Source: a virus. Taken from it: a stretch of 42,370 nucleotides of DNA. The stretch covers positions 1 to 42,370 of the IMG/VR virus record IMGVR_UViG_3300045242_000124; one strand, 5' to 3'. The notes beneath the pieces are model-generated. The model saw nothing but the letters and a program-made list of their open reading frames with translations. It ran no database searches and was not told the DNA's origin. Shown here piece by piece: positions 13,055 through 42,370 of the stretch. The stretch's first letter is position 1. Each line of letters begins with the position of its first letter. The translations under genes and the position numbers were made by a program.

Positions 13055-13152
13055 TCTTCGATTTCTCCTCCTGGCGCATCAATTCACGCCAAGCCAATAA
13101 CGCCCGCGCATTCGTGTACACAAGCCAATCAGCGTAGGAGGTGATTGGCTTC

Positions 13153-13344
13153 TCAGACATGCTTGATCGTCATTTCGGGGGCCGAGGGCTGGCCGGGGTT
13201 CTGCGACCGCGGATCGGAGTTCATGTGCCCGAAGATCGATTTGCGGGTGCCCCAGCCCATCTCGTCCATGTCAATCTTGACGATTTGGGGATCCTTCTCG
13301 ATCAACCGGTTGATGTTCGGACCGGGAAAATTCTTGGTAGCCAT
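13153..13344 (-). CDS. Hypothetical small protein (63 aa)
   Basis: Track ORF with plausible composition between the 130-aa ORF and the scaffold gene. Confidence 0.45.
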   Translation of the reverse strand: MATKNFPGPNINRLIEKDPQIVKIDMDEMGWGTRKSIFGHMNSDPRSQNPGQPSAPEMTIKHV

Positions 13345-13356
13345 TGGTTAACTCTC

Positions 13357-13749: not shown

Positions 13750-13865
13750 GGGTGGACCGATTAACGCCGGTGCTTACGCTTCCGACGATTATAGACTAGA
13801 CCCTGGCTAAGCATCGTTCGACTCCTAGGTTGTGCGCGGGACACTTATTGCACCGCTTCCATGCC

Positions 13866-16095: not shown

Positions 16096-16313
16096 GCCGG
16101 GGTCTGTGTGGGACCAGGTGCTACCAAGGCCGCCGCCATCTTTGCCGAGAAACGATGCCCATCCACCAATGCAAGACCATCACCGCACCAGTCATCGGGC
16201 GCCACGACCGGCCATTGACCATTAGCTGCCTCGTTCTTGCCAAAAAGAGTTGGTGCCGACTGGTGGCAAGTATTTTTCACAAAGAAAACACAGGCAAGGC
16301 AACTATCGGCCAT
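16092..16313 (-). CDS. Small Cys-rich protein (73 aa), paralog of 18727..18912 and 19711..19932
   Basis: CLACVFFVKNTCHQ...GQWPVVAPDDWCGDG. ATGA-type overlaps with both neighbours. Confidence 0.55.
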   Translation of the reverse strand: MADSCLACVFFVKNTCHQSAPTLFGKNEAANGQWPVVAPDDWCGDGLALVDGHRFSAKMAAALVAPGPTQTPA

Positions 16314-16654
16314 CAGATCCGCTCCGGATAGTCAAATGGGCGAGCCCACATCTCCTGCCAAGACGATTCCACCTTCTGCAGTGAATAGGTTGAGCCTGGA
16401 CCTCCGGTCCCCTTAATACGCCAGCCTAACCCTTCAAGCTTCTTGTTCGCCGCCTTTGCCATGACCGAGACAATATTGTGATCCTCGGGGCCGCCATTGG
16501 GGTCATCGGCATAGACTGCGTCGATGATCTGCCAGACAGTCACCCCTTGCGGATTCCTAGCAATATAATCAACCATTGCCTGCCGACGCAGCCCGCCAAC
16601 ATGGAACTTCGGAGGGAATCCGCGCCCACAATGCGGGCAAACATCATCGCTCAT
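16313..16654 (-). CDS. Winged-helix DNA-binding protein with N-terminal CxxC (113 aa); small-terminase or regulator candidate
   Basis: VWQIIDAVYADDPNGGPEDHNIVSVMAKAANKKLEGLGWRIKGTGGPGSTYSL resembles OmpR/PhoB-type winged helix. Overlaps the terminase stop by 11 nt. Confidence 0.5.
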   Translation of the reverse strand: MSDDVCPHCGRGFPPKFHVGGLRRQAMVDYIARNPQGVTVWQIIDAVYADDPNGGPEDHNIVSVMAKAANKKLEGLGWRIKGTGGPGSTYSLQKVESSWQEMWARPFDYPERI

Positions 16655-18515
16655 AGCTGTCTATGCTCGCCCATGCCGCAGCGTCATCCCTGTCGATGCG
16701 CCGCTCCTTGGCCTGATCAAAGAAGTCAGATACCACCCGACCGATCATCGAAGCTTGCGGTGCTTCCAGGGCTAGCCGCTCCTCGGTAGCCACACGATCA
16801 AAACGCTGATCATTGGCAATCATACCCGCTCGCACCCACTGAATCCAGGCGTGGACGGCGAGGGCCTGAGCGAACACCCGATCGTCGTGGGCGCGGCCTT
16901 CGGCCTTGATCTCAGAGCCGTCCTGAACAACTCTTTCCATCTCCTCGAGGAGAGGAACCGAGAACACTTCCAAGGCGCCCACCGCATACGTGTCGCGCAA
17001 CTGGTTCATGATCAATAGCTTGTTGTCCTGATTGGTTTTCCAATTATACACATAGCCCGCGCCCATGCTATCGGGACGGTGATAAAGATACCAGCGCACC
17101 GATGAGAATATGTCTTCAAGGTTGCCGGCCGATTCTGAAAGTCCTGGTATAAGGCGGCTGTCGAGGAGTTGGCGAAGGTGACGCAGCTCATCCATAACAG
17201 CAAAGCCAGGACCGTTAACTTCAAGATTGATGATGACGTTACGGTAACACCCAGCGAGGTGCGCCATAGCCCAGGTGGCTTGGTATGTTTCAGGGATTCC
17301 GGTACAAAATTCAGCCACTTGCACAAGTCGGTCGGCATAACACCTATCAATGGCGATGCAATGTCGGTCTTTGTCTTCTCGTCCATAGGCCGTGTCGAAT
17401 CCCATTGTGTAGACGCCATTGGGGTGCGGCTCCTGCCATATTCTCAGATCTGCCTCGGCGGTCGAGGCTAGTTCTTCAAGCTCAGTGGCGGAAAAATTCT
17501 GTCCCATGTGATAGCGATAAGCCTTGAGGGGTGTAGCCTCCTCATGTACCGCGCGCATATTCGAGGTGACCTTGCGCAACGGAAAAAACGAGCGGCCGGT
17601 AGAGATGAACGCCTCGCGCGAAGTCGAAGGGTAATTCTGGCGCATGAGATCCGGATCAGTAATCTCAGCAGTACGCATATATCGGTGCCAAGCCCACTGC
17701 GTGGGTTTGATCTCATAATTCGATTCGTCAATGACTGCTTGCGCAATCTCCCTCTCCTCCTCAGTCTCGGCACCGTCCCACCAACGCGCATATTCCGGCG
17801 AACCTTCGGCAAATGAGTAATCCTCCTTCAGAAACCAGCCGAGAAAGAACAGTGTCTGGGTCGTGTCGTCCGCCTCGGCACCGTTGCAGAGGTCGTACCA
17901 CTCATTTCCCAGACCGCGAGCAGTACTCTCCCAGATGTAGAGGCGGTGGGGGTGTTTTTGGGCGAGGGATGCTTTCAGATTGGCGATATCGGCCTCGGTG
18001 CTCCCCCAGTTGGATATTTCGGTGGCGTGCATGAAGTTCAGGGCGCGGGAGGTGCCGAGACTTCCTTTTTTTCCTCGTGTGCCGGCGACGAGGTAGTCGA
18101 TGACGGATCCGTTCTGGAGAACGAGATTGTTACGGTTATGCAGCTTGATGCCAACGCGGAGGCCTCGGGGAAGAGACTGGATATATTGTTCAAGCAGGAT
18201 CCTAAATTTGTCCCGATTGCCATCAGTGTCCGTAATGATAGCTCCTTGGAGCTTGTCATGTACCGATGCCCAGAAGACATCCAGCGCGAGGGATACAGTT
18301 GAAACTCCAAGCTGCCGAGACTTGAGGATTTTGAAGTCATGGATTCCGCGCCCGAGTCCATCGGCGATCTCCTCCAGGAATTTATATTGTGCCGTATAGA
18401 GTACGTCGAGCAGCGGCGTCGGCTTGGAGCTTTCCAACTCCTTGGAGCTGATCGTCATCCCCGAGAGAAATTCGAGGAAGCAATCCATCCATTCGGGTTT
18501 AGCTAATTTCTTCAT
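16644..18515 (-). CDS. terL: Terminase large subunit (623 aa)
   Basis: Walker-A-like ILKSRQLGVSTVSLA near residue 65, typical of large terminases. Size, acidic nuclease-like C-terminal half and position before the portal all fit. Confidence 0.88.
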   Translation of the reverse strand: MKKLAKPEWMDCFLEFLSGMTISSKELESSKPTPLLDVLYTAQYKFLEEIADGLGRGIHDFKILKSRQLGVSTVSLALDVFWASVHDKLQGAIITDTDGNRDKFRILLEQYIQSLPRGLRVGIKLHNRNNLVLQNGSVIDYLVAGTRGKKGSLGTSRALNFMHATEISNWGSTEADIANLKASLAQKHPHRLYIWESTARGLGNEWYDLCNGAEADDTTQTLFFLGWFLKEDYSFAEGSPEYARWWDGAETEEEREIAQAVIDESNYEIKPTQWAWHRYMRTAEITDPDLMRQNYPSTSREAFISTGRSFFPLRKVTSNMRAVHEEATPLKAYRYHMGQNFSATELEELASTAEADLRIWQEPHPNGVYTMGFDTAYGREDKDRHCIAIDRCYADRLVQVAEFCTGIPETYQATWAMAHLAGCYRNVIINLEVNGPGFAVMDELRHLRQLLDSRLIPGLSESAGNLEDIFSSVRWYLYHRPDSMGAGYVYNWKTNQDNKLLIMNQLRDTYAVGALEVFSVPLLEEMERVVQDGSEIKAEGRAHDDRVFAQALAVHAWIQWVRAGMIANDQRFDRVATEERLALEAPQASMIGRVVSDFFDQAKERRIDRDDAAAWASIDSYER

Positions 18516-18730
18516 ACAAAGGGACCACCGGGATACAAGACATGCCTCCCTTTAGGAGTTACCCAGTATTGCCCCGACCCGGCACAGCGATCACATTCTT
18601 CCGGACCAATAAAATCGTTCCATGAATAACTGCTTGTCTGCCCAGTGCCATAGCACACATAACAATTCTCCCGCTTCCATCCTTGCTGAATGCGAACTTC
18701 CTGAATGCAAAACCACTCCATAATAGTCAT
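18512..18730 (-). CDS. DnaJ-type zinc-finger small protein (72 aa)
   Basis: Start moved to the internal ATG at 18730 (ATGA overlap with the stop of 18727..18912). Contains CYVCYGTG and CDRCAGSG (CxxCxGxG twice). Confidence 0.55.
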   Translation of the reverse strand: MTIMEWFCIQEVRIQQGWKRENCYVCYGTGQTSSYSWNDFIGPEECDRCAGSGQYWVTPKGRHVLYPGGPFV

Positions 18731-29118: not shown

Positions 29119-29346
29119 TTAACTTCGCTTCTTTGTTCTCACCAAGCTGCCTTCCTGGTATAGATCGGGGTCTAGCTCCTCGAGCGACAATCCAGTGATC
29201 TGCGCTACCTGTTGCAACCGCTTGCGGGGTATGCGCTTCCACTTGTATACCGCCGGCCAGGTAATACCTAGCGCTTCTGCCAGCCTATTTTTGTTGCCTG
29301 CAGCACGGACGGCCTTCTTCACAGCCCAGGTTGCTCTTTTTGACAT
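29119..29346 (-). CDS. Cro/YdaS-type helix-turn-helix regulator (75 aa)
   Basis: GNKNRLAEALGITWPAVYKWKRIPRKRLQQVAQITGLSLEEL resembles Cro-like and YdaS-like HTH proteins. Divergent from the sugar operon. Confidence 0.65.
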   Translation of the reverse strand: MSKRATWAVKKAVRAAGNKNRLAEALGITWPAVYKWKRIPRKRLQQVAQITGLSLEELDPDLYQEGSLVRTKKRS

Positions 29347-29418: not shown

Positions 29419-29862
29419 ATGGCCAATGAGACTGTGGAATTGACGATACAATTCGTCAATCCTCCCAAAGAGGGGTCAAAGTGGGGGAGCATCAAATCCT
29501 CAGAAGGAATCTTCTACGGCGGCCCGCCCGCCTTGCTAAGGCAGTTCACTGCAGGTGAAGTTTGCACGATCGAATTCAGCAAGTCTGCCAATGGTCTTTA
29601 CAATAACATCGTCAAAAAGATCGGCGCCAGCAAGCCGGCGCCATTGTCTCCCCCACCGCGGCAACGGACGCACCCTAACGATCAAACCAGCATCTTTGTC
29701 ACTGCCTTGCTCGGCCACTTCATCCACACCGGCAAGGTCGCGCTTCAAGAAGATATGATTGCCGAAGCCGCAGACATGATCCTGCGCGCCTACCGGAAAT
29801 GCTCGCTCGGCGGTCTGCAGGTGCAGACCCGTGACGACATGGACGATTCCATAGGATTCTGA
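29419..29862 (+). CDS. Hypothetical protein (147 aa), first gene of the sugar operon
   Basis: ATG at 29419 lies 5 nt after GGGAGG (the track starts at the TTG at 29416). Its stop overlaps the next ATG. No motif recognised. Confidence 0.6.
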   Translation: MANETVELTIQFVNPPKEGSKWGSIKSSEGIFYGGPPALLRQFTAGEVCTIEFSKSANGLYNNIVKKIGASKPAPLSPPPRQRTHPNDQTSIFVTALLGHFIHTGKVALQEDMIAEAADMILRAYRKCSLGGLQVQTRDDMDDSIGF

Positions 29863-30728
29863 TGAGCACTTTTATCGTGGCCGAAGTCGGCGTTAATCAC
29901 AACGGCAGCTTGGACATCGCCAAGAGGCTAATCGATGCGGCAAAATGGGCCGGCGCCGACGCCGTGAAGCTGCAAAAACGCACCGTGGAGGTTGTCTATG
30001 CAAACCAGTTGGAAACGCCCCGAGAGTCTCCTTTCGGAACTACGCTTGGGGAGCAGAAAAGAGCATTGGAATTCAGCAGGCTTCAGTGGGATCTACTTGC
30101 CTCCTACTGTATTGCGATCAAAATGCCCCTATTTGCTAGCGCGTGGGATATTGCAAGCCTTGAATTCCTCGCTAAGTACGCTTTCCCCTACAACAAAATT
30201 GCGTCTGCTATGGCAACAAATCATGATTTTGTGGTCGCTATCGCTGCTGAACGTAAGCCTACGTTTGTCTCAACGGGTATGTGCGAATTTAGAGATATCC
30301 ACAATGCTATCACTTGGCTCCGAGGAGCAGGAGTAGGCGGGGCGCCACGAACCACCGCAGACGGAATAACCTTGATGCACTGCATCGGCACCTACCCGGC
30401 CGATGATGAAGAACTTAATCTCTGCCTGATACCCAAGATGCAGCGAGCCTTTGGCTTGCCCGTGGGCTACAGCGGCCACGAGGCTGGGGTGACGCCCTCG
30501 GTTGTCGCCGTGGTCTTGGGGGCCTGCGCCATCGAGCGGCACATCACCTTGGATCGCAGCATGTATGGCTCGGATCAGGCCGCTAGTCTCGAGCCGGTGG
30601 GCTTTAAACGAATGGTAGAGATGATTCGCAAGCTTCCGGTGATTGTCGGCAAGGCCACGACGCGGGAGATTTCCGATAGGGAGCGCGCGGTCGCCAAAAA
30701 ACTACGATATTGGGAGAATTCAGAATGA
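29862..30728 (+). CDS. NeuB-family nonulosonic acid synthase (sialic/pseudaminic/legionaminic acid synthase-like), 288 aa, apparently without the C-terminal SAF domain
   Basis: The N-terminus FIVAEVGVNHNGSLDIAKRLIDAAKWAGADAVKLQKRT is the hallmark NeuB/PseI/LegI motif. It ends about 50-60 aa short of typical family members. Confidence 0.85.
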   Translation: MSTFIVAEVGVNHNGSLDIAKRLIDAAKWAGADAVKLQKRTVEVVYANQLETPRESPFGTTLGEQKRALEFSRLQWDLLASYCIAIKMPLFASAWDIASLEFLAKYAFPYNKIASAMATNHDFVVAIAAERKPTFVSTGMCEFRDIHNAITWLRGAGVGGAPRTTADGITLMHCIGTYPADDEELNLCLIPKMQRAFGLPVGYSGHEAGVTPSVVAVVLGACAIERHITLDRSMYGSDQAASLEPVGFKRMVEMIRKLPVIVGKATTREISDRERAVAKKLRYWENSE

Positions 30729-30931
30729 CCGACATTGTGGAGCGGCTGCGGTATCAGTCCAAGGATTTTGGATACTTGCGCCTGGAAGCCGCCGCCGAGA
30801 TCGAGCAGCTACGTGCCGAGAATGCCGGCATCCAACAGGTGGCAACGCGCTTTGAGGGAGAAGCCGAAAGATTGCGCACTGAGATCGAGCAGCTGCGGAC
30901 TGAGATAGCGCGGATGCAGACCGGCACATGA
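30725..30931 (+). CDS. Small coiled-coil protein (68 aa) inside the sugar operon
   Basis: The ATG at 30725 forms ATGA with the NeuB-like stop. Heptad-like repeat AEIEQLRAENAGIQ...EAERLRTEIEQLRTEIARMQ. Confidence 0.55.
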   Translation: MTDIVERLRYQSKDFGYLRLEAAAEIEQLRAENAGIQQVATRFEGEAERLRTEIEQLRTEIARMQTGT

Positions 30932-31593
30932 TTCATTGCTTGATTAGTGCTCGAGCACATTCTGAGAGATTGCCTGGCAAGCATTTTCTCGACATCGGCA
31001 GCGGCATGATGGTGATGCAGCACGTCGAGCGGAGATGCAGGCACTTCGGAATGCAGCCCGTGTTCTGTGTCCCCGCACCGGAAATAAGTGAGTTTGACCA
31101 ATGGCTTGGTTGCACTGTCTACGGCGGAGACCCCGACAACCTGGAGGCGCGATTGATCGAGTGTGCAATCGGGTTGGAGTTGAAGCAGTTTCATCATCTT
31201 GATGGTGACGATCCGTTCTTTGATGAAACTGGAATTGTCTCCAGCATGCGCGCCCTGCAGCAATCCAATGCCGCGCGAATTACGCCAAGTTACGAGTCAC
31301 AGTCCGGATCAGGACGAATGGGGACGAGCTATAACCTGATGCAGAATGCGCAGGGCGAGGGGATTCTGGTCGAGGAGGGCAGGACCGCTCCATGGCCCCA
31401 GCGACTGACCCTGGACTATATCGAGGACTATCATTTATTGCTCGTGGTCAATCGCATCGTTGGCGGCTACATGGCGCCCAGGTGGGCGGTGGATGATGCC
31501 TTTGTCCGCAATCCCGACCTGCACAAGATCAACTGGTTCCGCACCGCAGAATGGAAAGATCGCCAGCTCGGCGCAGTCAAGAAGGTGATGTGA
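30928..31593 (+). CDS. Cytidylyltransferase-family protein (CMP-nonulosonate synthetase / SpsF-like), 221 aa
   Basis: The N-terminus IHCLISARAHSERLPGKHFLDIGSGMMVMQHV fits the i.AR..S.RlPGK...l.g.p.i motif of the acylneuraminate cytidylyltransferase family. Confidence 0.6.
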   Translation: MIHCLISARAHSERLPGKHFLDIGSGMMVMQHVERRCRHFGMQPVFCVPAPEISEFDQWLGCTVYGGDPDNLEARLIECAIGLELKQFHHLDGDDPFFDETGIVSSMRALQQSNAARITPSYESQSGSGRMGTSYNLMQNAQGEGILVEEGRTAPWPQRLTLDYIEDYHLLLVVNRIVGGYMAPRWAVDDAFVRNPDLHKINWFRTAEWKDRQLGAVKKVM

Positions 31594-32643
31594 ATGAGTG
31601 ACCCCGTTGCCGAGTTTGAGCGTCGCTTTGCCGAGAAGATCGGCACCGAGTACGCCATAGCGGTCAATAGCGGCACCAGCGCCCTGCATGCTGCCCTCGA
31701 GGCTGTTGATGTACGCGGCGGCGAGGTGATCATGCCTGCCCTGTGCCCGGCGATGGTGGCGTTTGCCATCATTCACGCCGGAGCTCAGCCGATATTTGCC
31801 GACGTGCATCCAGAGACATTCCTAGTCACCCCGACCACTATTTCCCCGCTGATAGGCAACAATACCCGAGCGATTATCCCGGTGTCTCTGTATGGCCTGC
31901 CAGCCGATACCGATGCACTAAAGGATCTTGCACTTCCAATCATCGAAGACTGCGCCCAATGCCTATTCGGGCGTTACAAGGATACCTTCGCCGGTCCGAA
32001 GGCAGACATGGCTTGCTATTCCTTTGAAGCAAAAAAGCACATGACCACCGGCTCGGAAGGAGGGATGATCATCACCAATAACGCTGCACTGGCGGAACGC
32101 GCCCGCAAGTTCAGCGGCCTCGGGTATGCACACTTGAGCGCGGGTATGGGAGGCACGAGAACATCCCTCAATATACCCGAGGCACAATCCCCCGATTATC
32201 TACGCTTTGATACGATCGGCCTCAATTACCGCATGAGTTTTGCGCAGGCCGAGAAGGGCATCTATGCCCTCAAATATGTTCAGGAGCGTATCCAGCTGCG
32301 ACAAGAGATCGGCTATTTGTGGCAGCATGTCCTGGGTAGCGAGCTGCAAAAGCACTCCTACGATGCCGATCACACATTCTGGACCGCCGCTTGGCCTGGA
32401 CCGATCCCGGAATGGCGGGACTTTTATGATGGGTTTGTTAAACGCGGAGGCGACGGGTTCTATGCCGCACCGCAACTGCCGTGGAATGAACCAGCACTCT
32501 CGGACTTCAAGCCCCTAAATGCAACCCCAGTCGCCGAGAGACTGCAGCGCAGCCTGATGCTGTTCAAGACTAATTATCGCTCGCTCTACTACGCCATGCA
32601 GCAAACCAAGATCCTACAGGAGATGCTGCATGTTCCGGCTTAA
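31594..32643 (+). CDS. DegT/DnrJ/EryC1/StrS-family PLP-dependent sugar aminotransferase (349 aa)
   Basis: EFERRFAEKIGTEYAIAVNSGTSALHAALEAV plus the lysine region YSFEAKKHMTTGSEGGMIITNN match family signatures. Confidence 0.85.
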   Translation: MSDPVAEFERRFAEKIGTEYAIAVNSGTSALHAALEAVDVRGGEVIMPALCPAMVAFAIIHAGAQPIFADVHPETFLVTPTTISPLIGNNTRAIIPVSLYGLPADTDALKDLALPIIEDCAQCLFGRYKDTFAGPKADMACYSFEAKKHMTTGSEGGMIITNNAALAERARKFSGLGYAHLSAGMGGTRTSLNIPEAQSPDYLRFDTIGLNYRMSFAQAEKGIYALKYVQERIQLRQEIGYLWQHVLGSELQKHSYDADHTFWTAAWPGPIPEWRDFYDGFVKRGGDGFYAAPQLPWNEPALSDFKPLNATPVAERLQRSLMLFKTNYRSLYYAMQQTKILQEMLHVPA

Positions 32644-33277
32644 GGGCAAGCGGGTGGCGGTAATAGGCTGTGATGGACTATTGGGCAAGGTGGCTGTCGA
32701 GACGGTAGAGGAATTGGGAGGTAAGGTGACCGAATATGATTTGAGGATCGGGGACGACATCAGGGAGTCATCGTTTGTCGTTGCTGCGATGCACGACAAT
32801 GTAGATGCGGTTATAAACTGCGCCATTGGCAACCAGGCGCCGGTCAAGGACGCAGACCTGTGGTTCAAGAGAGATCTTGATATAGGCCTCACCGGCGCGC
32901 TGAATGTCGCCATGGGATTTGAGCAAGCGCTGAGGCGAAACAAGGGGAGTCTCGTCTTTGTTGGTTCCGACCTGTCGTTTATAGCCCCATATCCTGAGCG
33001 CTACGCTCCCAATTACAAGCCTTTGGCCTACTCCGTAGTAAAGCACGGAATCATAGGCATGACCCGCTATCTAGCGGCCCACTGGGGGCCGGATGTGCGG
33101 GTGAATTGCCTATGCCCTGGCGGGATAGACCAGGGGCAGGCCGTGCCTAGGTGCCCCCTGGGCCGCCTGGCAAAGCCGGAGGAGATGAAGGGTCCGATAG
33201 CGTTCCTATTGTCGGAGGCCTCGAGCTACATGACTGGGACAACCCTGGTCGTCGATGGAGGAAGAACAATATGGTGA
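32630..33277 (+). CDS. Short-chain dehydrogenase/reductase (215 aa)
   Basis: GKRVAVIGCDGLLGK (glycine-rich NAD(P) loop), VINCAIG, YSVVKHG (YxxxK) and NCLCPGGI. Confidence 0.8.
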   Translation: MFRLKGKRVAVIGCDGLLGKVAVETVEELGGKVTEYDLRIGDDIRESSFVVAAMHDNVDAVINCAIGNQAPVKDADLWFKRDLDIGLTGALNVAMGFEQALRRNKGSLVFVGSDLSFIAPYPERYAPNYKPLAYSVVKHGIIGMTRYLAAHWGPDVRVNCLCPGGIDQGQAVPRCPLGRLAKPEEMKGPIAFLLSEASSYMTGTTLVVDGGRTIW

Positions 33278-33822
33278 GCACGCATTACGTCTGGACTGAC
33301 GCTGCAATCGAGGAATTCAAGTCGATGTGGCTCGGAGGTGTGCACATTTACGACATGGCTCGTCATTTCAATATGGTCGAGCAGAGCATTCGTAAGGCGC
33401 GGTTAAGGTTTGGGCTGCCGGAACGAAAGATCAGCAACTGGACCGATGAAAGGTCGGACTACCTCAAGGAGAGCTGGGGACATTCAACCGCCTCAGCCAT
33501 CGCGGCAAAGCTGAATATCTCCCGCAATGCCGTGATTGGCCGAGCTCGGCGCATGGACCTCGATGCCAAGAGAAGTGGACCAGTGACCGGCAACAAGCAG
33601 CGGCCACGACAAATGCCCGTCATTATTAGGCCGCCGGCGCCCCCGCCGCGGGAACCGTTCTCATGGCCGGAGATTCCGTCACTGAATATTCCGTTACTCG
33701 AGCTTGAAGATGGACAGTGCCGCTTTCCTTGCGATGAGGGGTTCTGCGGGCATCCCATTGTCTATAACTCTTATTGCGCGCAGCATACGCGATTGTGCTA
33801 CCGGATCCTGCGAGTTGCCTAG
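33271..33822 (+). CDS. gcrA: GcrA-family cell-cycle regulator homolog (183 aa) with a duplicated N-terminal HTH-like module
   Basis: NWTDERSDYLKESWGHSTASAIAAKLNISRNAVIGRARRMDL and the C-terminal LLELEDGQCRFPCDEGFCGHPIVYNSYCAQHTRLCY match GcrA N- and C-terminal signatures. An upstream VWTDAAIEEFKSMWLGGVHIYDMARHFNMVEQSIRKARLRFGL is a second copy of the N-module. The ATG at 33271 follows GGAGGAAG. Confidence 0.8.
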   Translation: MVSTHYVWTDAAIEEFKSMWLGGVHIYDMARHFNMVEQSIRKARLRFGLPERKISNWTDERSDYLKESWGHSTASAIAAKLNISRNAVIGRARRMDLDAKRSGPVTGNKQRPRQMPVIIRPPAPPPREPFSWPEIPSLNIPLLELEDGQCRFPCDEGFCGHPIVYNSYCAQHTRLCYRILRVA

Positions 33823-35862: not shown

Positions 35863-36089
35863 CGCGCTGCCCTTGCTTTTAGCACCTCTATCTCTGCTTG
35901 CTGTGCTTTATTCCCTGTGAAGTCGTCCAGCTCATCGATGCACAAACTCAATTCGGCCCCGGCACAGGTGATGATCACGGCGTTCTTATGTTCCACATAC
36001 GGTCCAGTTGGTGCCGTTGTAGCGTATCTTCGCATGCCGCGAGCCACCGCCGCTGGACGTTGCACCGAACGTTCCCGCGCTGTTGTCAT
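35859..36089 (-). CDS. Doubtful small ORF (start uncertain)
   Basis: The track ORF overlaps the last 104 nt of the 643-aa gene. A GTG at 35996 would give a 45-aa product (VEHKNAVIITCAGAELSLCIDELDDFTGNKAQQAEIEVLKARAAR). Confidence 0.3.
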   Translation of the reverse strand: MTTARERSVQRPAAVARGMRRYATTAPTGPYVEHKNAVIITCAGAELSLCIDELDDFTGNKAQQAEIEVLKARAAR

Positions 36090-37917
36090 CCACGATATTG
36101 TATTCTTGCCCTTCGGTCGGCCCTACAGCTTGGACTCCCGACTGCCCTGGGAGGCTGGCAAATGTCATTCCTAGCGTTGGATTGTTACAATTCACAAAAG
36201 CAAAACTGGCTTTATTGTTACTGTTCATCCCCGATAGTGGGGTTTGATTGTCAACCCCCCAGGCAGAGCCATGCGTGACCGTCAACGCCACTCCTGTGAT
36301 GTTCAAACTGATAGCCCCACCGGCCCTCGTTGTTAGAACATAGGACTTATTAGGTCCACCGTTGCTATAACTTCCGACAGGAAAGCCAACCTCGTTCGCG
36401 ATAAGCGGCGCGCTAGACCCGGTGGGTACGCCAGACCCTGAGACCACACCAAGAATGCCAATGGTATTGGTCAACCCAGCCTTGACGGTCAAAACATTTC
36501 CGGCAACACCCGAAGGACTTCCCGCGCCAGCACCATTATCTATGAAGGCGTTGGTATCGGTAACAGCCGCGGGGGTCGTATTTCCAAAGCAACTGTTAAA
36601 TACAACATTTTGAAACACATCACTGGTGCCAAATTGAAACGCCGCCTGTGCGCAACTGATATTACCTCGGACTCCGTTGAATACCGTTTGCCCTACGCTT
36701 AACAACAACATCGCGCATTGCGGAGAGCCAGTATTGATGCCGCCCAAAGTAGGGGCTTGATTCATGACGCTTGTCAGGTTGCACGGACCGATGACGCATC
36801 CTGACATGCCGTGCAGAGCCATTGCTATTCCAACTGCTTCACACTCGTAATTAGAAATCGTGGATGCGGTCAGGGTTTGCTTACGCCTAAACGTTATGGC
36901 CTGCGCGCTGCTAAGAGCAGGGACGTTGCCCCCCGTACTCGTGACATTGTAGGTCCCCGTACCACCCGTTCCCGTACCCAGGCTCGCTACGGTCACAGTG
37001 ATAGTACTGGCTATGCCGGTTGCAACAATTTGGTCGCCGACCTGAATGGGGACAATGCTGCTCAGCGGATTTGGGTAAGTCGTACCGCCGACGGTCAGCA
37101 CGCCAGAAGTGCCGCTGCTGGTCATGGTGCATGACGTGGCTACTCCGATGAAATAGCCCAGTCTCATCCCAACAATGGCATTCTCAATATGGATATCCGA
37201 GATGTTGCAGGCAGTCCCGGTTGCCGCGAGCCCGGTTTCCATGAGCCCGGGAGAATGACACCCCATGACCGTGCTGCCGCTGATGACGAGGCCCACAGAA
37301 CCTTGGGCGCCGCCACTCTGTACCTCTATGCCGGTGATGGTGGAAACAAATTCATTCCATCCTGACCAAAGACCAATATTACCCAGCAATGATAGATTGC
37401 GCAGCACGCCAAACGGCTGGACGTAGACTAACGCACCGCTGCCGATAGTAGTGCTAAGGTTGACAATGCTCAGGTCCGAAATTTCCTGCACACCATTACT
37501 TTGATCATCCAGTCGGACAACAAAATCGTTCGCGATGGTCCCTTGAATGATGCTGGCATTGCAGCCGGCCCCTGTGAAGCGCCCCGTAGACGCTCCCACG
37601 CCCGCCAGATTGATCTGGCTTAAGACCTTGTAGGTGCCAGGAGGAAAGAAAACAGTGCCGCCCTTCGTGCTCGTGCCGTACATCGCAGCAACGGCCGCGT
37701 TGATAGCCGGAGCACTGTCCGAAGCGCCTGTACGATCGGCACCATAGTCTAGAACATTGAAAATATCCGCCCAGCGATCGGGATCAGTACGGTTCGCGCT
37801 CCTACCAGTGGCAGGAAAGGCAAATCCTGTAAATGCTGTGTCAGCCCGAGCCTGCGTTGCGAATACGCCCGCAACAACCCCGCCGAGCAGCAATGCTTTC
37901 CTGCGCGAGCTATTCAT
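35986..37917 (-). CDS. Right-handed beta-helix (pectate-lyase-3-like) polysaccharide depolymerase or tailspike-like protein with a twin-arginine signal peptide (643 aa)
   Basis: MNSSRRKALLLGGVVAGVFATQARA|D fits the Tat motif S-R-R-x-(F/A)-L plus AxA. FNVLDYGADRTGASDSAPAINAAVAAMYGTSTKGGTVFFPPGTYKV matches the N-terminal signature of Pectate_lyase_3 / tailspike beta-helices. Confidence 0.65.
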   Translation of the reverse strand: MNSSRRKALLLGGVVAGVFATQARADTAFTGFAFPATGRSANRTDPDRWADIFNVLDYGADRTGASDSAPAINAAVAAMYGTSTKGGTVFFPPGTYKVLSQINLAGVGASTGRFTGAGCNASIIQGTIANDFVVRLDDQSNGVQEISDLSIVNLSTTIGSGALVYVQPFGVLRNLSLLGNIGLWSGWNEFVSTITGIEVQSGGAQGSVGLVISGSTVMGCHSPGLMETGLAATGTACNISDIHIENAIVGMRLGYFIGVATSCTMTSSGTSGVLTVGGTTYPNPLSSIVPIQVGDQIVATGIASTITVTVASLGTGTGGTGTYNVTSTGGNVPALSSAQAITFRRKQTLTASTISNYECEAVGIAMALHGMSGCVIGPCNLTSVMNQAPTLGGINTGSPQCAMLLLSVGQTVFNGVRGNISCAQAAFQFGTSDVFQNVVFNSCFGNTTPAAVTDTNAFIDNGAGAGSPSGVAGNVLTVKAGLTNTIGILGVVSGSGVPTGSSAPLIANEVGFPVGSYSNGGPNKSYVLTTRAGGAISLNITGVALTVTHGSAWGVDNQTPLSGMNSNNKASFAFVNCNNPTLGMTFASLPGQSGVQAVGPTEGQEYNIVDDNSAGTFGATSSGGGSRHAKIRYNGTNWTVCGT

Positions 37918-38129: not shown

Positions 38130-38327
38130 TTAGGGACCTGCTTGTGCTGGAATCAATGGTGCTATTTGTGTTGGTGTAACCAATTTGCCCAGCTCTGTGG
38201 TATTCAATCCTTGCGTGCCACCGGACACTAAGTTGGATGCCGTGGCCGCAAAACTTCCACTAGCATCTACATGCCGATGAGCAAAGCAAGAAGCTTCAGC
38301 ATGACGCCGGGAAGTTTCCCGCTCCAT
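38130..38327 (-). CDS. Doubtful small ORF (65 aa)
   Basis: Track ORF overlapping the upstream gene by 32 nt. Composition is not distinctive. Confidence 0.3.
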   Translation of the reverse strand: MERETSRRHAEASCFAHRHVDASGSFAATASNLVSGGTQGLNTTELGKLVTPTQIAPLIPAQAGP

Positions 38328-39279
38328 AGTAGGCTTGCTGATTTTTACAGATGTTTGTTCGCTGCGTGAGAGTCAGCGCCGATTCGATCATGCCTCCCTC
38401 AGAAAAATACCCATCCGAAACCTGTCCACTACCGCCAAATTGAAAAATAACAATCTTCTGGGCAGTCGGAGTGTTTGTTCCACACGCTATTCCAGTAATA
38501 TCTACACCGTTTTCGTTGAGCTGACAGGTATTCGAGGCCGATGCCACTCCCTGCACGGCCTTCATCGTACCAGCCGCTGCTGGCGATGGCGGCTCACAAA
38601 CAATGCTGCCAGCATACATCATATTGCTCGTATTTAAGCTGGAACACGTAACATAAAGAACGCCTGCATTGGCATCCATTCCTATGCCCGTTTGGAACGT
38701 TCCACTTCCAGTCACTATCTCGGCAACAATAGTGAACGAGTAGGGAAAACCAAAAGTCAGGCCGGAAGATGAAGAATAAAATTGATTGGCACTTGCCAGG
38801 CATTGACCGAATGTCGCTGTCGCGAAACAGGAACCAGCGGGAGCTACCGTGAATTGATTGGCCGCCGTGGATTGCAGTTGATGATTCCCGTTCCCCGTCT
38901 GGTCGTACATCTCGACGACGGAACAGGTAGTGGCAGCGCACCACGTCGCAACTGCTGTTCCATTATCACCGCTCGGCGTACAGTTTGCCGTAATCCCCCA
39001 AGTGCCGCTGGTGGCGATCAGCACGTCGCAGGTGTGGCTGTCGCTCGCACGACTTAGATTGCAACTCGCATTGCTGCCAGTTGCAAAAGCGGCATTGTAG
39101 GCGCGGACGCAAGAATACCAAGCATTCCAGCCAGAAGCTTTGTCGCCAACGCCCTGATAACCAGTTGGTGCGACAGGAGCGCCTAGACCGGCGCCAGTCT
39201 GCGACACTTGAGCGTAGCATGGCCAAGCCACGATCAGTGCGGCGCAGAGAAAAAGATAGAGGCCAAGCACACGTTTCAT
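38296..39279 (-). CDS. Secreted Cys-rich protein (327 aa)
   Basis: Start moved to the ATG at 39279 (ATGA with the upstream stop). Signal peptide MKRVLGLYLFLCAALIVAWPCYA|Q. Many Cys in the mature part. Confidence 0.6.
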   Translation of the reverse strand: MKRVLGLYLFLCAALIVAWPCYAQVSQTGAGLGAPVAPTGYQGVGDKASGWNAWYSCVRAYNAAFATGSNASCNLSRASDSHTCDVLIATSGTWGITANCTPSGDNGTAVATWCAATTCSVVEMYDQTGNGNHQLQSTAANQFTVAPAGSCFATATFGQCLASANQFYSSSSGLTFGFPYSFTIVAEIVTGSGTFQTGIGMDANAGVLYVTCSSLNTSNMMYAGSIVCEPPSPAAAGTMKAVQGVASASNTCQLNENGVDITGIACGTNTPTAQKIVIFQFGGSGQVSDGYFSEGGMIESALTLTQRTNICKNQQAYYGAGNFPASC

Positions 39280-40202
39280 TGCTGTACGTAAGTAAGATTG
39301 CCAGCAACGAAAACACTGCTGCCGAGGATGATGCACAACTCGCTAGATGCCGCCCCTTTCGCGATTGTACCAACGCCACTGCCGAGCGTAAGGCCACCGT
39401 TGGCGGCTAGTGCCATGCTGTTCGCGATACTCGCCGTCGTCGATCCGATGACCGCCGCGTTGCCGGTCACGCAGGCGGTGCCGGTGCCGGTGGTGAATGC
39501 GACTGTCGTTGCGCCAGCGGCGATCAGCGAGAGTGAACAAACATAGATCGAAGTAGAGCCAGAGAGGGCAATAAGCTGGACCGAACTCGTCGAGTTCGTG
39601 TTGATCGGCAGATTGGTCTTGGCCTGGAATGTGCAGGGATCGGCAACAGCCTGATTGCTCGCTAATGTCACCGGCGAGCTGTTGGCCATCGTCGCTTGAC
39701 CATTGGTGTTGGCATTGGTGACAAAGGCATTGACACCAGGAACAAGCACGGCGCCGGGAGACGTGCCATAATTGGCTATTGCGCCAAGAGTGCTACCAGC
39801 CCATGAGGTAAAGCCGTTGACCTGCGTCGCCAGGGTCCCCGTGCCGACCACGGTGGCGTTGAGGCTCGCCGCAGTAGCCTGCGACACAGTGGACAAAACC
39901 GGCGTCATAGATGCGACGCCCTGGACAGTTACAACGCCGCCGGTAGCCGTTCCCGCCGTACCCTCGCCCGTAATGGTCAGCCCATGGCCGCTATCGACTG
40001 TTGCGCAGGTTGTTACTGTCGTGAAATCGCAGACCGTATTCATCCACGATAGATTGCCAGTAACGGCGCCGGTAGAAGAAAAAACGTTGAACGTGCGGGC
40101 CACCGCCCCGGCATCATTCGCCTGGACTGTGGTCGCCCCACTCGCTGCCCACGCCTGCAACGGCGCCAAGGCAATTACAAGTGCCAGTAATATGCGAATC
40201 AT
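39276..40202 (-). CDS. Secreted Thr/Ala/Gly-rich protein (308 aa) whose C-terminal ~100 aa are paralogous to 41008..41358
   Basis: Start moved to the ATG at 40202. Signal peptide MIRILLALVIALAPLQAWA|AS. The C-terminus reads IYVCSLSLIAAGATTVAF...ALAANGGLTLG...ILGSSVFVAGNLTYVQQ. Confidence 0.6.
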   Translation of the reverse strand: MIRILLALVIALAPLQAWAASGATTVQANDAGAVARTFNVFSSTGAVTGNLSWMNTVCDFTTVTTCATVDSGHGLTITGEGTAGTATGGVVTVQGVASMTPVLSTVSQATAASLNATVVGTGTLATQVNGFTSWAGSTLGAIANYGTSPGAVLVPGVNAFVTNANTNGQATMANSSPVTLASNQAVADPCTFQAKTNLPINTNSTSSVQLIALSGSTSIYVCSLSLIAAGATTVAFTTGTGTACVTGNAAVIGSTTASIANSMALAANGGLTLGSGVGTIAKGAASSELCIILGSSVFVAGNLTYVQQ

Positions 40203-41972: not shown

Positions 41973-42370
41973 TACCGCTCCTGCCCCAATCTTTCCAATA
42001 GCGGACTCAACTCTGCCCCCGCCAAAGGCGCCCCGCGCTGCAGAGCATTCCCCACAGTTTCGCGCGCCGGCCGAGTTGCCTCCCGTATGGCTGTCCCCTT
42101 CTCCGTATAGGGAAGGCCTACTGTCCCACGAAGGCCCAATCCGTAGAGGGTTTTCAAAAAGCCAAGCTTTTCTCGTTCGGCAGTGCCAGAGTCGGAGACC
42201 ACCGCGGGCAAGACTTTCTGCGCCGTTTCAGCCACTCCCTGCCCCAAGTTGCGACCCATACCAAACCCAAGCGGGGATTTGTCCCTCTTCTTCATTGTCT
42301 GCAGCAGATCATTGGCCGTGAATACCTGCCCCGACGTAGCGCGCCGCTCGGCAGCATCAAATGCCGTGCG
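41972..42370 (-). CDS. 3' part of the 508-aa wrap-around ORF (same gene as 1..1255; 42244-42370 duplicates 1-127)
   Basis: The frame is continuous because 42243 is divisible by 3, and 1255 nt plus 272 nt gives 509 codons. It ends ...SPLLERLGQER with the stop at 41972-41974. The track shows only the internal-Met fragment 41972..42295. Confidence 0.8.
   Translation of the reverse strand, partial: RTAFDAAERRATSGQVFTANDLLQTMKKRDKSPLGFGMGRNLGQGVAETAQKVLPAVVSDSGTAEREKLGFLKTLYGLGLRGTVGLPYTEKGTAIREATRPARETVGNALQRGAPLAGAELSPLLERLGQER
42244..42370. repeat. Terminal direct repeat, copy 2 of 2 (identical to 1-127)
   Basis: See copy 1. The offset is exactly 42,243. Confidence 0.97.

Follow-up and report, generated by a model that had tools for sequence, protein, structure and literature searches.

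Characterised Maf enzymes take CMP-Pse, CMP-Leg, CMP-Neu5Ac and CMP-Kdo as donors (PMC11339370). Their common target is flagellin, and the flagellar Mafs carry a C-terminal domain that resembles flagellin or flagellin chaperones. The window analyzed here, a stretch of 42,370 nucleotides (IMG/VR record IMGVR_UViG_3300045242_000124), is bounded at its termini by an exact direct repeat of 127 bp and therefore represents a complete phage genome; no cultured relative of this phage was found. It encodes a four-enzyme sugar cassette and, within its capsid operon, a Maf-like protein that lacks the flagellar C-terminal domain. We propose that the phage O-glycosylates its own virion with an amino-ulosonic acid that it produces in CMP-activated form, a reading to which we assign a probability of roughly one half.

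A sugar-enzyme block beside a Cro-like gene

Six translationally coupled ORFs occupy positions 29419-33277. Four of them belong to sugar-enzyme families, and the GC content of the block equals that of the remainder of the genome. The junctions reported by an earlier sequence-only reading are present: ATGA overlaps at 30725-30728 and 30928-30931, a TGA ending at 31593 followed by an ATG at 31594, and a 14-nt overlap of the DegT and SDR genes. Coupling extends into the gene of a GcrA-like regulator (33271-33822, plus strand; PF07750, E = 5.2e-20), with an overlap of 7 nt between its ATG and the SDR stop. A GcrA gene occupies the equivalent position in locus L107 and lies ahead of NeuB in L108; the regulator points to an alphaproteobacterial host. 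On the other side, the block is divergently oriented from a Cro/YdaS-like HTH regulator gene (29119-29346, minus strand; PHROG transcriptional repressor families, E = 1.5e-8), the positional homologues of which in sister phages have P22_Cro/YdaS Pfam hits. This arrangement implies that the block is an early rightward operon, and the region beside the Cro-like switch (29.4-33.8 kb) would be the donor-synthesis part of the proposed system.

The 288-aa synthase (29862-30728, plus strand) is a NeuB-family member (PF03102, E = 1.4e-64, 218 bits) that scores below the NeuB and PseI equivalog cutoffs of NCBIfam (TIGR03569, 225 bits; TIGR03586, 186 bits). Its PDB matches include SpsE (1VLI, 7e-32), PseI (8H2C, 4e-29) and a SAF-less protein (6NCS, 8e-26). 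All alignable catalytic and metal residues of Neisseria meningitidis NeuB are kept, with Glu25, Lys53, Lys129, His215, Glu234 and His236 corresponding to E8, K36, K112, H206, E225 and H227. The suspicion that the synthase lacks a SAF domain is borne out, since none appears in a Pfam profile search. In N. meningitidis NeuB, Arg314 of the SAF domain is reported to be required, and the absence of this domain from the phage synthase counts against our proposal. The phage synthase belongs to a large SAF-less clade that spans very diverse bacteria and archaea and has unusual gene neighbors (SIS isomerase, xylose-isomerase-like TIM barrel, glyoxalase, class-III aminotransferase and methyltransferases). 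Its predicted product is a 3-deoxy-2-ulosonic (nonulosonic-type) acid, formed by condensing PEP with an aldose taken from the host.

The next sugar gene (30928-31593, plus strand) encodes a divergent KdsB/SpsF-like cytidylyltransferase of 221 aa, which is the weakest of the four family assignments. Its CTP_transf_3 match (E = 3.2e-4) falls slightly under the cutoff (21.0 versus 22.6 bits), a point against our proposal. Further matches to a KdsB-type NCBIfam model (6e-7) and to KdsB itself (1GQ9, 1e-4) uphold the earlier cytidylyltransferase-like call, and the motifs ARxxSxRLPGK (residues 8-19) and DGDDPFF (92-98) align with 1GQ9. Orthologues in sister phages are 48-73% identical and have a precomputed CTP_transf_3 hit; homologues in Pelagibacteraceae clusters are 26-27% identical. 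This enzyme would convert the ulosonic acid into a CMP-activated donor.

The other two families were also identified correctly from the sequence alone, and their matches, like that of the synthase, lie far beyond chance. The 349-aa protein (31594-32643, plus strand) is a DegT/PseC/LegC-type PLP aminotransferase (PF01041, E = 4.5e-59; PHROG aminotransferase, 1.4e-40) with an SFEAKKH...GSEGG motif at residues 143-157. Its top NCBIfam models are PseC (1.8e-41) and a LegC family (1.5e-38), each scoring under its equivalog cutoff. A classical short-chain dehydrogenase/reductase of 215 aa (32630-33277, plus strand; adh_short_C2, E = 3.7e-31; top NCBIfam match PRK09186, 2e-24) follows, with the motifs GCDGLLG (13-19), NCAIG (63-67) and YSVVK (134-138). 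The SDR would oxidize one hydroxyl of the sugar, and the aminotransferase would convert the resulting keto group to an amine. The substrate of these steps might be a nucleotide-sugar precursor of the host, prior to condensation, or the (CMP-)ulosonic acid formed later.

The sequence-only reading called the operon apparently incomplete, and the PseB/LegB, PseH/LegH and PseG/LegG steps are indeed missing. Their absence holds genome-wide: a Pfam sweep of 52 other ORFs of the complete genome revealed neither a 4,6-dehydratase nor an N-acetyltransferase nor a UDP-sugar hydrolase/epimerase, and no further sugar-pathway enzyme was found in this genome outside the modules described here. No hydrolyzing epimerase, dehydratase or acetyltransferase is encoded to supply the aldose substrate, which counts against our proposal, and a cassette that cannot start from UDP-GlcNAc may depend on host enzymes. 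Incompleteness in the sense of decay is another matter, since the same order of four enzymes is kept in sister phages, which argues for a selected, working unit and not a remnant.

The remaining two ORFs, previously listed as unknown parts of the sugar operon, probably have no role in sugar chemistry. The first gene of the block (29419-29862, plus strand) encodes a 147-aa protein with no match in Pfam, NCBIfam, PHROG or PDB; its ATG at 29419 is preceded by AAGGGAGG, and the TTG at 29416 is a mechanical start. This protein is 62% identical in L107. Its C terminus (DDMDDSIGF) and those of its positional analogues in L106 (FDDDVPF) and L107 (NDEVPW) resemble the acidic tips of SSB proteins, so that it is probably not a sugar enzyme and possibly has an SSB-like role in replication or recombination. 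The 68-aa coiled-coil ORF (30725-30931, plus strand) has only sub-threshold coiled-coil hits and no tblastn match in any related locus. In L106 and L107 the cytidylyltransferase gene is directly 3' of NeuB with no space for an intervening ORF, and by this comparison the 68-aa ORF is an insertion that does not belong to the conserved cassette.

A Maf-like protein in the capsid operon

The late operon, on the minus strand, runs from the major capsid protein (MCP) through a Thr-rich 399-aa virion protein, a 312-aa MptE-like/Maf-like protein, a 177-aa ORF and a SAM methyltransferase to an SU10-type adaptor. The Maf-like gene is translationally coupled here, about 20 kb from the sugar cassette. The MCP (11437-12453; PHROG 9953 major head protein, E = 4e-28) is 84-89% identical across the clade. 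At the downstream end of this capsid/glycosylation sub-operon is a 311-aa probable SU10-type head-to-tail adaptor (7093-8028; PHROG connector/structural hits), with 58-62% identity among clade members. The surveyed loci of distant phages that share this gene order have three PF24175 SU10_adaptor matches, and the proteins carrying them are likely those of about 311-324 aa at the equivalent position.

The 312-aa protein (9263-10201, minus strand) is a "mini-Maf" that comprises only the central domain (PF01973, E = 5.5e-14; 52.7 bits versus a cutoff of 34.6). Its sole NCBIfam hit is the PseD flagellin modification protein (1.3e-6), the single significant match of its profile among PDB sequences is Maf (5MU5, 3.2e-7), and PHROG gives an alpha-2,3-sialyltransferase (1.7e-4). 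Foldseek with the AF2 model (pLDDT 87.3) ranks Maf 5MU5 first (8e-6), followed by the archaeal MptE HPPK (5e-5) and then by GT29/GT42 sialyltransferases. Independent methods thus group this protein with Maf, PseD and sialyltransferases, all of which use CMP-ulosonic acid donors, and we predict that it is a CMP-ulosonic-acid:protein O-glycosyltransferase. The fold that the model shares with an archaeal pterin pyrophosphokinase counts against this prediction. Loss of the flagellar Maf C-terminal domain fits an acceptor other than flagellin.

A candidate for the glycan acceptor is the Thr/Gly/Ala-rich protein of 399 aa (10222-11421, minus strand), whose gene lies between the MCP and Maf-like genes in every case examined. 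It contains 15.8% Thr, 21.6% Ser plus Thr and one Lys, has GxGY repeats, and is predicted to be all-beta (AF2 pLDDT 77.8). Weak PHROG hits are to virion and tail-fibre proteins, and BFVD matches are to phage structural proteins only, with low TM-scores; a PDB match was not found.

Downstream of the Maf-like gene is the 177-aa ORF (8740-9273, minus strand), which has no family match and is found only in the present genome; sister loci lack a homologue, their Maf-like gene being immediately adjacent to the gene for the methyltransferase. The methyltransferase gene (8015-8743, minus strand) encodes a 242-aa SAM-dependent class I enzyme (Methyltransf_12, E = 5.7e-12). The two genes adjoin in L109 and L111-L114, a methyltransferase is fused to an MptE-like domain in L133, and the protein library repeatedly shows proteins of about 500 aa in which the C-terminal domain is Maf-like. 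Another clade member has a methyltransferase within the sugar cassette. The methyltransferase is predicted to partner the Maf-like enzyme, with the sugar as its substrate or, possibly, the acceptor instead.

Together, the mini-Maf and methyltransferase, co-translated with the MCP, the 399-aa protein and the adaptor, would form the second part of the system. The transferase would attach the (methylated) acidic sugar to Ser/Thr residues of virion proteins, most likely the 399-aa protein, perhaps also the MCP, although a position beside the capsid gene does not by itself prove that capsid proteins are the acceptor. A sialic-acid-like coat would then cover the released particle. The sequence-only reading, which saw no transferase, looked to host flagellin, LPS or capsule; the Maf-type transferase and methyltransferase of the capsid/adaptor operon point instead to the virion. 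Its observations are confirmed, and its interpretation is partly supported.

Conservation and co-occurrence of the two modules

The NeuB-cytidylyltransferase-DegT-SDR cassette recurs with 45-76% identity in the early operon of an uncultured clade of phages of about 40 kb, in each case beside a Cro-like gene (L002/L128, L106, L107, L126, L127, L129 and the P0030 contig). The Maf-like gene and a NeuB cassette occur together on at least five contigs verified directly by a common contig name or a single locus (the window, IMGVR 3300021560_000027, 3300043694_000009, 3300047160_009397 and L172). Co-occurrence is putative on three more that are less directly matched, and pattern-limited scans found one module each on contigs 3300047160_003172 and 3300043432_000041.

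Independently rearranged loci keep the parts together. In L172, a distant relative with a 67% identical MCP, the sugar cassette has been swapped for one with NeuB, a PseF-like cytidylyltransferase, a class-III aminotransferase, a glyoxalase and a SPASM protein, located 2.5 kb from an MCP, 399-aa homologue and MptE-like gene series. The capsid protein of L133 belongs to another family (Phage_capsid_3); after its gene come an ORF of 264 aa, the methyltransferase-MptE-like fusion and then genes for NeuB, an aminotransferase, a radical-SAM enzyme and CTP_transf_3. In a second group of phages, whose MCP identity is only 23-25%, an MptE-like gene again follows the MCP and a protein of about 190 aa. 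In a Pelagibacteraceae cellular cluster (L035), the MptE-like and NeuB/cytidylyltransferase genes are adjacent or nearly so.

Alternative readings and biological meaning

A Maf-like enzyme might instead modify host flagellin, pilin or S-layer, or the donor might feed host LPS/capsule transferases, which would shut out superinfecting phages or alter the cell surface in the course of infection or lysogeny. This reading, which we regard as possible though rather unlikely, draws on the action of all characterized Mafs on flagellin and on the A. baumannii prophage proteins EpaA and EpaB, which remodel the pseudaminic acid of the capsule (PMC12053666); flagellin is also glycosylated in many alphaproteobacteria (PMC7591256), the host group suggested by the GcrA-like gene. 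A host-directed role is also favored by the temperate or prophage-derived members of the clade, such as L108, which has an integrase, and L174, which survives as a remnant within a cellular contig of 100 kb. A search of the complete genome studied here revealed no integrase, however, and the cassette is in a lytic early operon, not a moron position. The Maf-like gene is coupled between capsid and adaptor genes across divergent capsid lineages, some of a different family, and its product lacks the flagellin/chaperone-like domain. A related cellular cluster is in Pelagibacteraceae, which are not known to be flagellated. The sugar itself might also differ: a SAF-less NeuB paralogue could make a different ulosonic acid from PEP, or a metabolite that is not a glycan, an option that we consider doubtful but worth weighing given the below-cutoff equivalog scores and the diverse hosts and unusual neighbors of the SAF-less clade. 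To our knowledge, all characterized NeuB-family enzymes make C9 acids, however, and the cytidylyltransferase and sialyltransferase-fold enzyme that travel with the synthase imply a CMP-activated glycosyl donor. A product other than a C9 acid would alter the sugar and not the logic of the system.

It is quite unlikely that the modules are unrelated, with the cassette boosting or diverting a host nonulosonic-acid pathway and the MptE-like protein having some other role, for example that of an assembly factor or of a kinase that binds nucleotides or pterins. The missing steps from UDP-GlcNAc, the HPPK match and the 20-kb separation would fit such a view, but the co-occurrence on verified contigs, the proximity of MptE-like and NeuB/cytidylyltransferase genes in L133, L172 and L035, and the top matches to Maf/PseD and sialyltransferases oppose it. 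Least probable, and by our estimate very unlikely, is an acidic sugar added to phage DNA bases for restriction evasion. Metagenomic phage glycosyltransferases can add a Kdo-like ulosonic acid to 5-hydroxymethylcytosine (bioRxiv 10.1101/2023.12.21.572611), and the cassette lies among early replication-type genes. In the complete genome, however, neither a cytosine methyltransferase nor a TET/5mYOX dioxygenase, dNMP hydroxymethylase or GT-B DNA glycosyltransferase was found; its methyltransferase belongs to the class I enzymes that act on small molecules, and its sole candidate transferase is the Maf-like protein of the capsid operon.

Virion glycosylation is the reading that we prefer. A transferase coupled within the structural operon and a cassette in an early lytic operon fit use during particle production, and the pairing of an activated-sugar pathway with a Maf-like gene beside the capsid gene suggests that the phage probably sugar-coats its own particle. 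Coating of the particle with a sialic-like sugar has not been described for phages, and it might mask or stabilize the virion, change its adsorption or stickiness, or mimic host surfaces.

The sugar genes of the early operon

The open reading frames, overlaps and start codons that the sequence-only reading described between 29419 and 33277 all lie where it placed them on the plus strand. A 147-aa ORF (29419-29862), whose ATG at 29419 is preceded by the ribosome-binding site AAGGGAGG, leads into a 288-aa NeuB-like synthase (29862-30728), a 68-aa ORF with an ATGA overlap at each end (30725-30931), a cytidylyltransferase-like protein (30928-31593), a DegT aminotransferase that starts one base past the preceding stop (31594-32643) and a 215-aa SDR that shares 14 nt with it (32630-33277). 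Translational coupling continues past the SDR, the stop of which overlaps by 7 nt a GcrA-like gene on the same strand (33271-33822; PF07750, E = 5e-20). A Cro/YdaS-like gene on the minus strand (29119-29346) diverges from this block. The base composition of the sugar genes is that of the rest of the window, and a promoter and terminator scan returned counts not above those for shuffled sequence.

The synthase is a NeuB-family member, as had been proposed from sequence. Residues 23-265 match positions 1-239 of the 241 in PF03102 (E = 1.4e-64), and the active-site residues are kept: a phmmer alignment to 1XUU pairs Glu25, Lys53, Lys129, His215, Glu234 and His236 of NmNeuB with E8, K36, K112, H206, E225 and H227 of the window protein. 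These catalytic and metal-binding positions are invariant across 22 clade members. In NeuB, the C-terminal SAF (antifreeze-like) domain supplies Arg314 to the neighbouring active site. The earlier observation that this domain is missing also holds, with no SAF match in the 288 residues; close relatives are all about 275 aa long and contain PF03102 only, and 6NCS (290 aa) is a solved structure of a SAF-less NeuB homologue. The synthase is predicted from its family to condense PEP and a hexose to a C9 2-keto-3-deoxy acid. However, the nine-carbon identity of the sugar is in question because the protein falls outside the characterised equivalogs of N-acetylneuraminate and pseudaminic acid synthase (225 versus a cutoff of 400 bits for TIGR03569 and 186 versus 340 bits for TIGR03586).

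The putative cytidylyltransferase is divergent, yet it retains the motifs of that family. It scores 21.0 bits against CTP_transf_3 (PF02348; gathering cutoff 22.6) and matches a KdsB-type NCBIfam model (6e-7) and KdsB 1GQ9 (1e-4). The motifs tested were the nucleotide-binding (P/A)AR..S.R(L/F)PGK and the acidic metal motif GD(E/D)P. Its ARAHSERLPGKH (residues 8-19) and DGDDPFF (residues 92-98) line up with those of 1GQ9, so that ARxxSxRLPGK and GD(D/E)P are both present. Orthologues in sister phages have a precomputed CTP_transf_3 match, and a Pelagibacteraceae homologue exceeds the cutoff at 27.2 bits. The aminotransferase matches PF01041 (E = 4.5e-59), with SFEAKKH...GSEGG at residues 143-157, where the Schiff-base lysine is assigned by motif rather than by structure; like the synthase, it lies under the equivalog cutoffs (142 versus 423 bits for PseC and 133 versus 420 bits for the LegC family). 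The SDR is a classical one (adh_short_C2, E = 3.7e-31) and the only SDR in the genome.

The two remaining ORFs of the block are probably not sugar enzymes, because no related locus contains a detectable homologue of the 68-aa ORF, the first gene of the block is replaced in the related locus L106 by a protein that is not homologous to the 147-aa product, and the first genes of these early operons end in acidic SSB-like tips. These tips read DDMDDSIGF in the window (29419-29862), FDDDVPF in L106 (9603-9998) and NDEVPW in the related locus L107 (633-1079). The 147-aa protein matched nothing in Pfam, NCBIfam, PHROG or PDB. From the acidic C-terminal tips of these positional analogues, we would guess that the small first-position proteins may act in single-strand DNA binding or in recruitment.

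The steps that the sequence-only reading listed as missing are missing from the whole genome, since 52 further ORFs swept with Pfam yielded no dehydratase, acetyltransferase or NDP-sugar hydrolase/epimerase. An extended-SDR NDP-GlcNAc 4,6-dehydratase (PseB/LegB) is absent from the complete genome, and none of the 59 ORFs scanned matches a PseH/LegH N-acetyltransferase, Epimerase_2 or a PseG-like hydrolase (PseG/LegG). With an exact 127-bp direct repeat at its ends (1-127 and 42244-42370), the window represents a whole phage genome of about 42.2 kb, either circularly assembled or terminally redundant. It carries the tailed-phage markers large terminase (16644-18515) and major capsid protein (MCP; 11437-12453, minus strand). 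No tRNA gene was found in the window, no flagellar gene is present in the genome and the sweep of 52 ORFs contains no integrase.

A probable Maf-like transferase among the capsid genes

A late operon on the minus strand runs from the MCP through p399, a 399-aa virion protein (10222-11421), a 312-aa Maf-like protein (9263-10201), a 177-aa ORF (8740-9273) and a class I SAM methyltransferase found in the genome sweep (8015-8743) to a 311-aa adaptor-like protein (7093-8028), with no gap or overlap longer than 20 nt. The 177-aa ORF occupies this position in this genome only and has no family match and no homologue in sister phages.

The Maf-like protein matches PF01973 (MptE-like, formerly MAF_flag10) with 52.7 bits against a cutoff of 34.6. 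Its sole NCBIfam match is PseD, the Campylobacter flagellin-modification Maf (1.3e-6, on the central region), and a profile of 18 homologues run against PDB sequences finds only the central domain of the Magnetospirillum Maf 5MU5 (3.2e-7). The alignment is confined to residues 260-426 of this 666-aa protein. An AF2 model (pLDDT 87.3) also has 5MU5 as its top Foldseek match (8e-6), followed by the archaeal MptE pyrophosphokinase HPPK (5e-5) and by several sialyltransferases of GT29 (8e-4 to 1e-2) and GT42, with CstII (1RO8) at 3e-3, and there is a weak PHROG match to 'alpha-2,3-sialyltransferase'. Characterised Mafs glycosylate Ser/Thr of flagellin from CMP-activated donors (pseudaminic, legionaminic, N-acetylneuraminic and Kdo sugars); they have a Cst-II-like central domain and a flagellin/chaperone-like C-terminal domain (PMC11339370). 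One of them, CbMaf, has been assayed in an E. coli strain that accumulates CMP-Neu5Ac. At 312 aa the phage protein does not have this three-domain architecture of about 600 aa, and its gene adjoins capsid, virion and adaptor protein genes rather than flagellin or flagellar genes. Sequence and model together predict that it transfers a CMP-activated ulosonic acid to Ser/Thr. The family comprises 214 clusters at E <= 1e-30 and 1,729 at E <= 1e-10. Most members of the 214 clusters are 255-310 aa long; in some of about 500 aa the domain is C-terminal, which fits putative methyltransferase fusions.

The favoured candidate for the glycan acceptor is p399, from its position and composition. This Thr/Gly/Ala-rich protein is modelled as all-beta (AF2 pLDDT 77.8), has no significant PDB match and in BFVD matches phage structural proteins only, at low TM.

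Short beta modules that carry a G-x-G-Y motif (GAGY, GSGY, GWGY) recur in Thr/Gly-rich stretches of both p399 and the adaptor-like protein. The repeat has weak PHROG matches to tail-fibre and baseplate proteins.

Conservation and rearrangement in related phages

The closest relatives of the synthase (57-77% identity) lie on phage contigs of about 40 kb, where the order is NeuB, cytidylyltransferase, DegT, in some cases a methyltransferase, and SDR, beside a Cro-like gene and sometimes a GcrA gene. Identities for all four enzymes are 45-76%. The cassette is thus conserved and not decayed, contrary to a reading of the 'incomplete' operon of the first description as decay. The possibility that the phage copied it recently from a known host operon was rejected: none of 78 cellular loci with a NeuB of about 50% identity contains an exact four-gene twin. 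The four families occur close together only in the Pelagibacteraceae loci L035 and L040, and a third cellular locus (L081) has weak cytidylyltransferase and DegT homologues. In one single-cell genome from the Pelagibacteraceae, the same set of families is clustered, including a weak MptE-like protein. Carriers of the SAF-less NeuB clade are very diverse bacteria and archaea, among them Pelagibacteraceae, Prochlorococcus, Nitrosopumilales (ammonia-oxidising archaea), Bryobacterales, Omnitrophota, Lentisphaerae and many others. Around these NeuB genes (L001, 9107-17769; L035, 4680-13045; others) there are recurrently methyltransferases, CTP_transf_3 proteins, aminotransferases, an SIS isomerase, a xylose-isomerase-like TIM barrel, a glyoxalase and SDRs.

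The order MCP, p399, Maf-like, methyltransferase and adaptor is kept in the clade (L109-L114, L173), with identities of 84-89% for the MCP and only 49-58% for p399 and 43-50% for the Maf-like protein. Cassette and Maf-like gene reside together on at least five verified contigs (the window, IMGVR 3300021560_000027, 3300043694_000009, 3300047160_009397 and L172), and three more assemblies contain both by less direct matching.

Three independent rearrangements hold the parts together. In L172 (ena ERZ25039477 contig_139839), a 54-kb relative with a 67% identical MCP, a different cassette (3270-7515) encodes NeuB, a PseF-like cytidylyltransferase, a class-III aminotransferase, a glyoxalase and a SPASM protein. 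The portal and scaffold genes flank this cassette, and a run of MCP, p399 homologue and MptE-like genes is 2.5 kb away. L133, whose capsid protein belongs to another family (Phage_capsid_3), continues after the capsid gene with a 264-aa ORF, a methyltransferase-MptE-like fusion, NeuB, a class-IV aminotransferase, a radical-SAM/SPASM enzyme and CTP_transf_3. The third case is a second phage group with an MCP of just 23-25% identity; there the MCP precedes a protein of about 190 aa and one or two MptE-like genes, and the same loci encode SU10_adaptor-family proteins. This swapping of cassettes, with the candidate transferase and acceptor genes kept, looks like surface-glycan diversification.

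Several further features of these loci were observed. The NeuB of L172 has a basic N-terminal extension of about 65 aa, and the family set of its cassette resembles that of a cellular cluster in L001. In the second group (L115, L118, L119 and L123, from IMG/VR), nine proteins over six loci match the MptE-like model, so that some loci have two; these are probably the adjacent ORFs of about 280-310 and 264 aa that follow the capsid gene. The loci also contain matches to GNAT acetyltransferase and CN-hydrolase.

The GcrA-like gene suggests an alphaproteobacterial host, and freshwater or soil Alphaproteobacteria are the probable source of the clade. In L107 and L108, too, the cassette is flanked by GcrA-like genes, and phage control of methylation-dependent transcription is a possible role for them. 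The window protein has a PHROG 'D5-like transcriptional regulator' match over residues 8-101, ahead of its GcrA region (residues 56-178), and may have an extra N-terminal HTH segment. On the minus strand, a 643-aa protein (35986-37917) has a pectate-lyase/rhamnogalacturonase-like beta-helix domain (E = 5.6e-12) and a 346-aa protein (38296-39336) has an alpha-L-arabinofuranosidase-B-like catalytic domain (E = 2.5e-7). Both are probably polysaccharide-degrading receptor-binding proteins by their domains, and a capsule, EPS or LPS receptor is therefore implied. A structural module of the clade type with a truncated 199-aa MptE-like gene, and with tail genes apparently missing, adjoins cellular genes (WS/DGAT, STAS, AdhE-like) on a 100-kb contig (L174, ena ERZ25039517 contig_59533, 3273-18562). 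This locus resembles a prophage in decay and might reveal the host.

Proposed route, target and significance

These observations are best explained if the phage makes a CMP-activated amino-ulosonic acid and O-glycosylates its own virion. Early in infection, the SAF-less synthase would join PEP to a host aldose, the SDR and DegT enzymes would jointly turn a hydroxyl into an amine and the cytidylyltransferase would produce the CMP donor. Late in infection, the small Maf, made together with the capsid proteins, would place the sugar on Ser/Thr of virion proteins, and the methyltransferase would act on this sugar, or possibly on the acceptor. All these functional assignments are predictions from sequence, modelled structures and genome comparison.

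The data favour neither order of the middle steps. Oxidation and transamination might precede condensation and act on a host nucleotide sugar, in keeping with the usual DegT substrates; a host hydrolase would then be needed to release the aldose. Alternatively, both might act on the ulosonic acid after condensation, which would make the route self-contained. Gattis and colleagues reportedly described in 2013 a Shewanella Kdo8N pathway of this type, with the oxidoreductase KdnB and the aminotransferase KdnA. There a hydroxyl is converted through a keto group to an amine on the condensed ulosonic acid before CMP activation, which is a precedent for a self-contained route, although the sugar is the eight-carbon Kdo from KdsA, the oxidoreductase is of another family and the target is LPS. 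The SDRs EpaB and AciE, which work on finished nonulosonic acids, provide a further post-condensation precedent (PMC12053666).

The main rival explanation is that the sugar is placed on flagellin or another surface protein of the host for superinfection exclusion or lysogenic conversion. Every known Maf acts on flagellin, and the clade includes some temperate phages or remnants of prophages. In an Acinetobacter baumannii prophage, moreover, EpaA and EpaB, which are CTP_transf_3 and adh_short_C2 SDR proteins, act on nonulosonic acid and show that classical SDRs can oxidise or reduce the finished sugar (PMC12053666). EpaAB remodel capsular pseudaminic acid, but they just epimerise the host-made sugar for the host capsule (lysogenic conversion) and, unlike the window phage, come without a synthase, an aminotransferase, a transferase or a link to virion genes. 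The phage transferase sits in a capsid operon across divergent lineages and has no flagellin-type C-terminal domain, and the cassette occupies a lytic-operon position, all of which argue against a host target. A lysogenic-conversion moron was set aside as the main reading, given the operon position and coupling.

If the two modules were functionally independent, their adjacency or near-adjacency in L133, L172 and L035 would not be expected, and this reading is disfavoured. Modification of phage DNA with an acidic sugar has a precedent in the Kdo-like adduct on 5hmC, where a phage likewise uses an ulosonic-acid donor (bioRxiv 10.1101/2023.12.21.572611). DNA modification of that kind depends on a 5mC methyltransferase, a TET-like dioxygenase and a GT-B DNA glycosyltransferase, whereas the Pfam sweep of the complete genome found none of these and no dNMP hydroxymethylase, so we set it aside.

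The predicted virion glycosylation resembles the Maf flagellin islands (Campylobacter/Helicobacter PseBCHGIF with PseD/PseE, Aeromonas Maf1, Magnetospirillum Maf 5MU5 and Clostridium/Geobacillus Maf), which have the same families and logic. A NeuB-family synthase, DegT and a PF01973 transferase are common to both, as is a CMP-transferase, a putative one in the phage; the islands' acceptors are Ser/Thr residues of a surface-exposed structural protein, and the ulosonate-to-Ser/Thr role is predicted for the phage. Unlike the islands, the phage has no 4,6-dehydratase, N-acetyltransferase or nucleotidase/epimerase and no SAF domain on its synthase, and it has an additional classical SDR and methyltransferase. 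Its transferase is a central domain of about 300 aa encoded beside capsid genes, whereas island Mafs have about 600-670 aa with N- and C-terminal domains and are encoded beside flagellin genes.

Among viruses, mycobacteriophage glycosyltransferases are said, in 2023 work by Freeman and colleagues, to modify capsid and tail proteins. As here, their genes adjoin structural genes, and virion glycosylation, which occurs there, is predicted here. The mycobacteriophages rely on ordinary GT-A/GT-B enzymes and NDP-sugars of the host, whereas the window phage carries a pathway for its donor, a predicted acidic ulosonic acid, and a Maf-type transferase. Giant viruses and chloroviruses also encode sugar-nucleotide synthesis and transferases that decorate their own capsids or fibrils, but they infect eukaryotes, have genomes of hundreds of kilobases and use other sugars and enzymes. 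We know of no Maf or NeuB pairing in them.

Every component here comes from a known family, and the logic appears to copy that of the flagellin islands. Searches of open-access papers and bioRxiv full text found no phage with a nonulosonic-acid pathway and a Maf-type transferase and no virions bearing such sugars; the SugarBase preprint, which reports new CMP-ulosonic acids, contains no phage system. GenBank phages have no DNA match to the window, only three weak NeuB protein matches, no Maf-like match and MCPs of at most 44% identity in metagenome-derived records. These DNA and protein searches thus revealed no cultured relative or earlier annotation among them.

Taken jointly, the data can be read as a widespread, unrecognised class of phage self-sialylation in tailed phages with SU10-like portals and adaptors. 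It would combine a dehydratase-free CMP-amino-ulosonate route (SAF-less NeuB, cytidylyltransferase, aminotransferase and a redox enzyme) with a minimal Maf, plus a partner or fused methyltransferase, that O-glycosylates capsid-associated proteins. Serotype-like cassette swaps would diversify the virion surface, and the SAF-less NeuB and small Maf of bacteria such as Pelagibacteraceae, which are not known to be flagellated, would form a new, non-flagellar Maf branch. This reading is tentative, and we assign it a probability of about 0.4.

If correct, this would be the first phage known to us to encode both a pathway to a sialic-acid-like sugar and a transferase dedicated to its own particle. 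It would also point to a four-enzyme, dehydratase-free route to amino-ulosonic acids and gives a lead on the large, uncharacterised SAF-less NeuB clade. A minimal Maf would be of interest for glyco-engineering, where O-sialylation of recombinant proteins by Maf enzymes is under study (PMC11339370). Maf-type glycosylation would reach past flagellin, with an enzyme of about 300 aa as the minimal catalytic Maf. An acidic glycan coat on the virion would influence immune recognition in any therapeutic phage use, and it would affect adsorption, aggregation, grazing and environmental decay.
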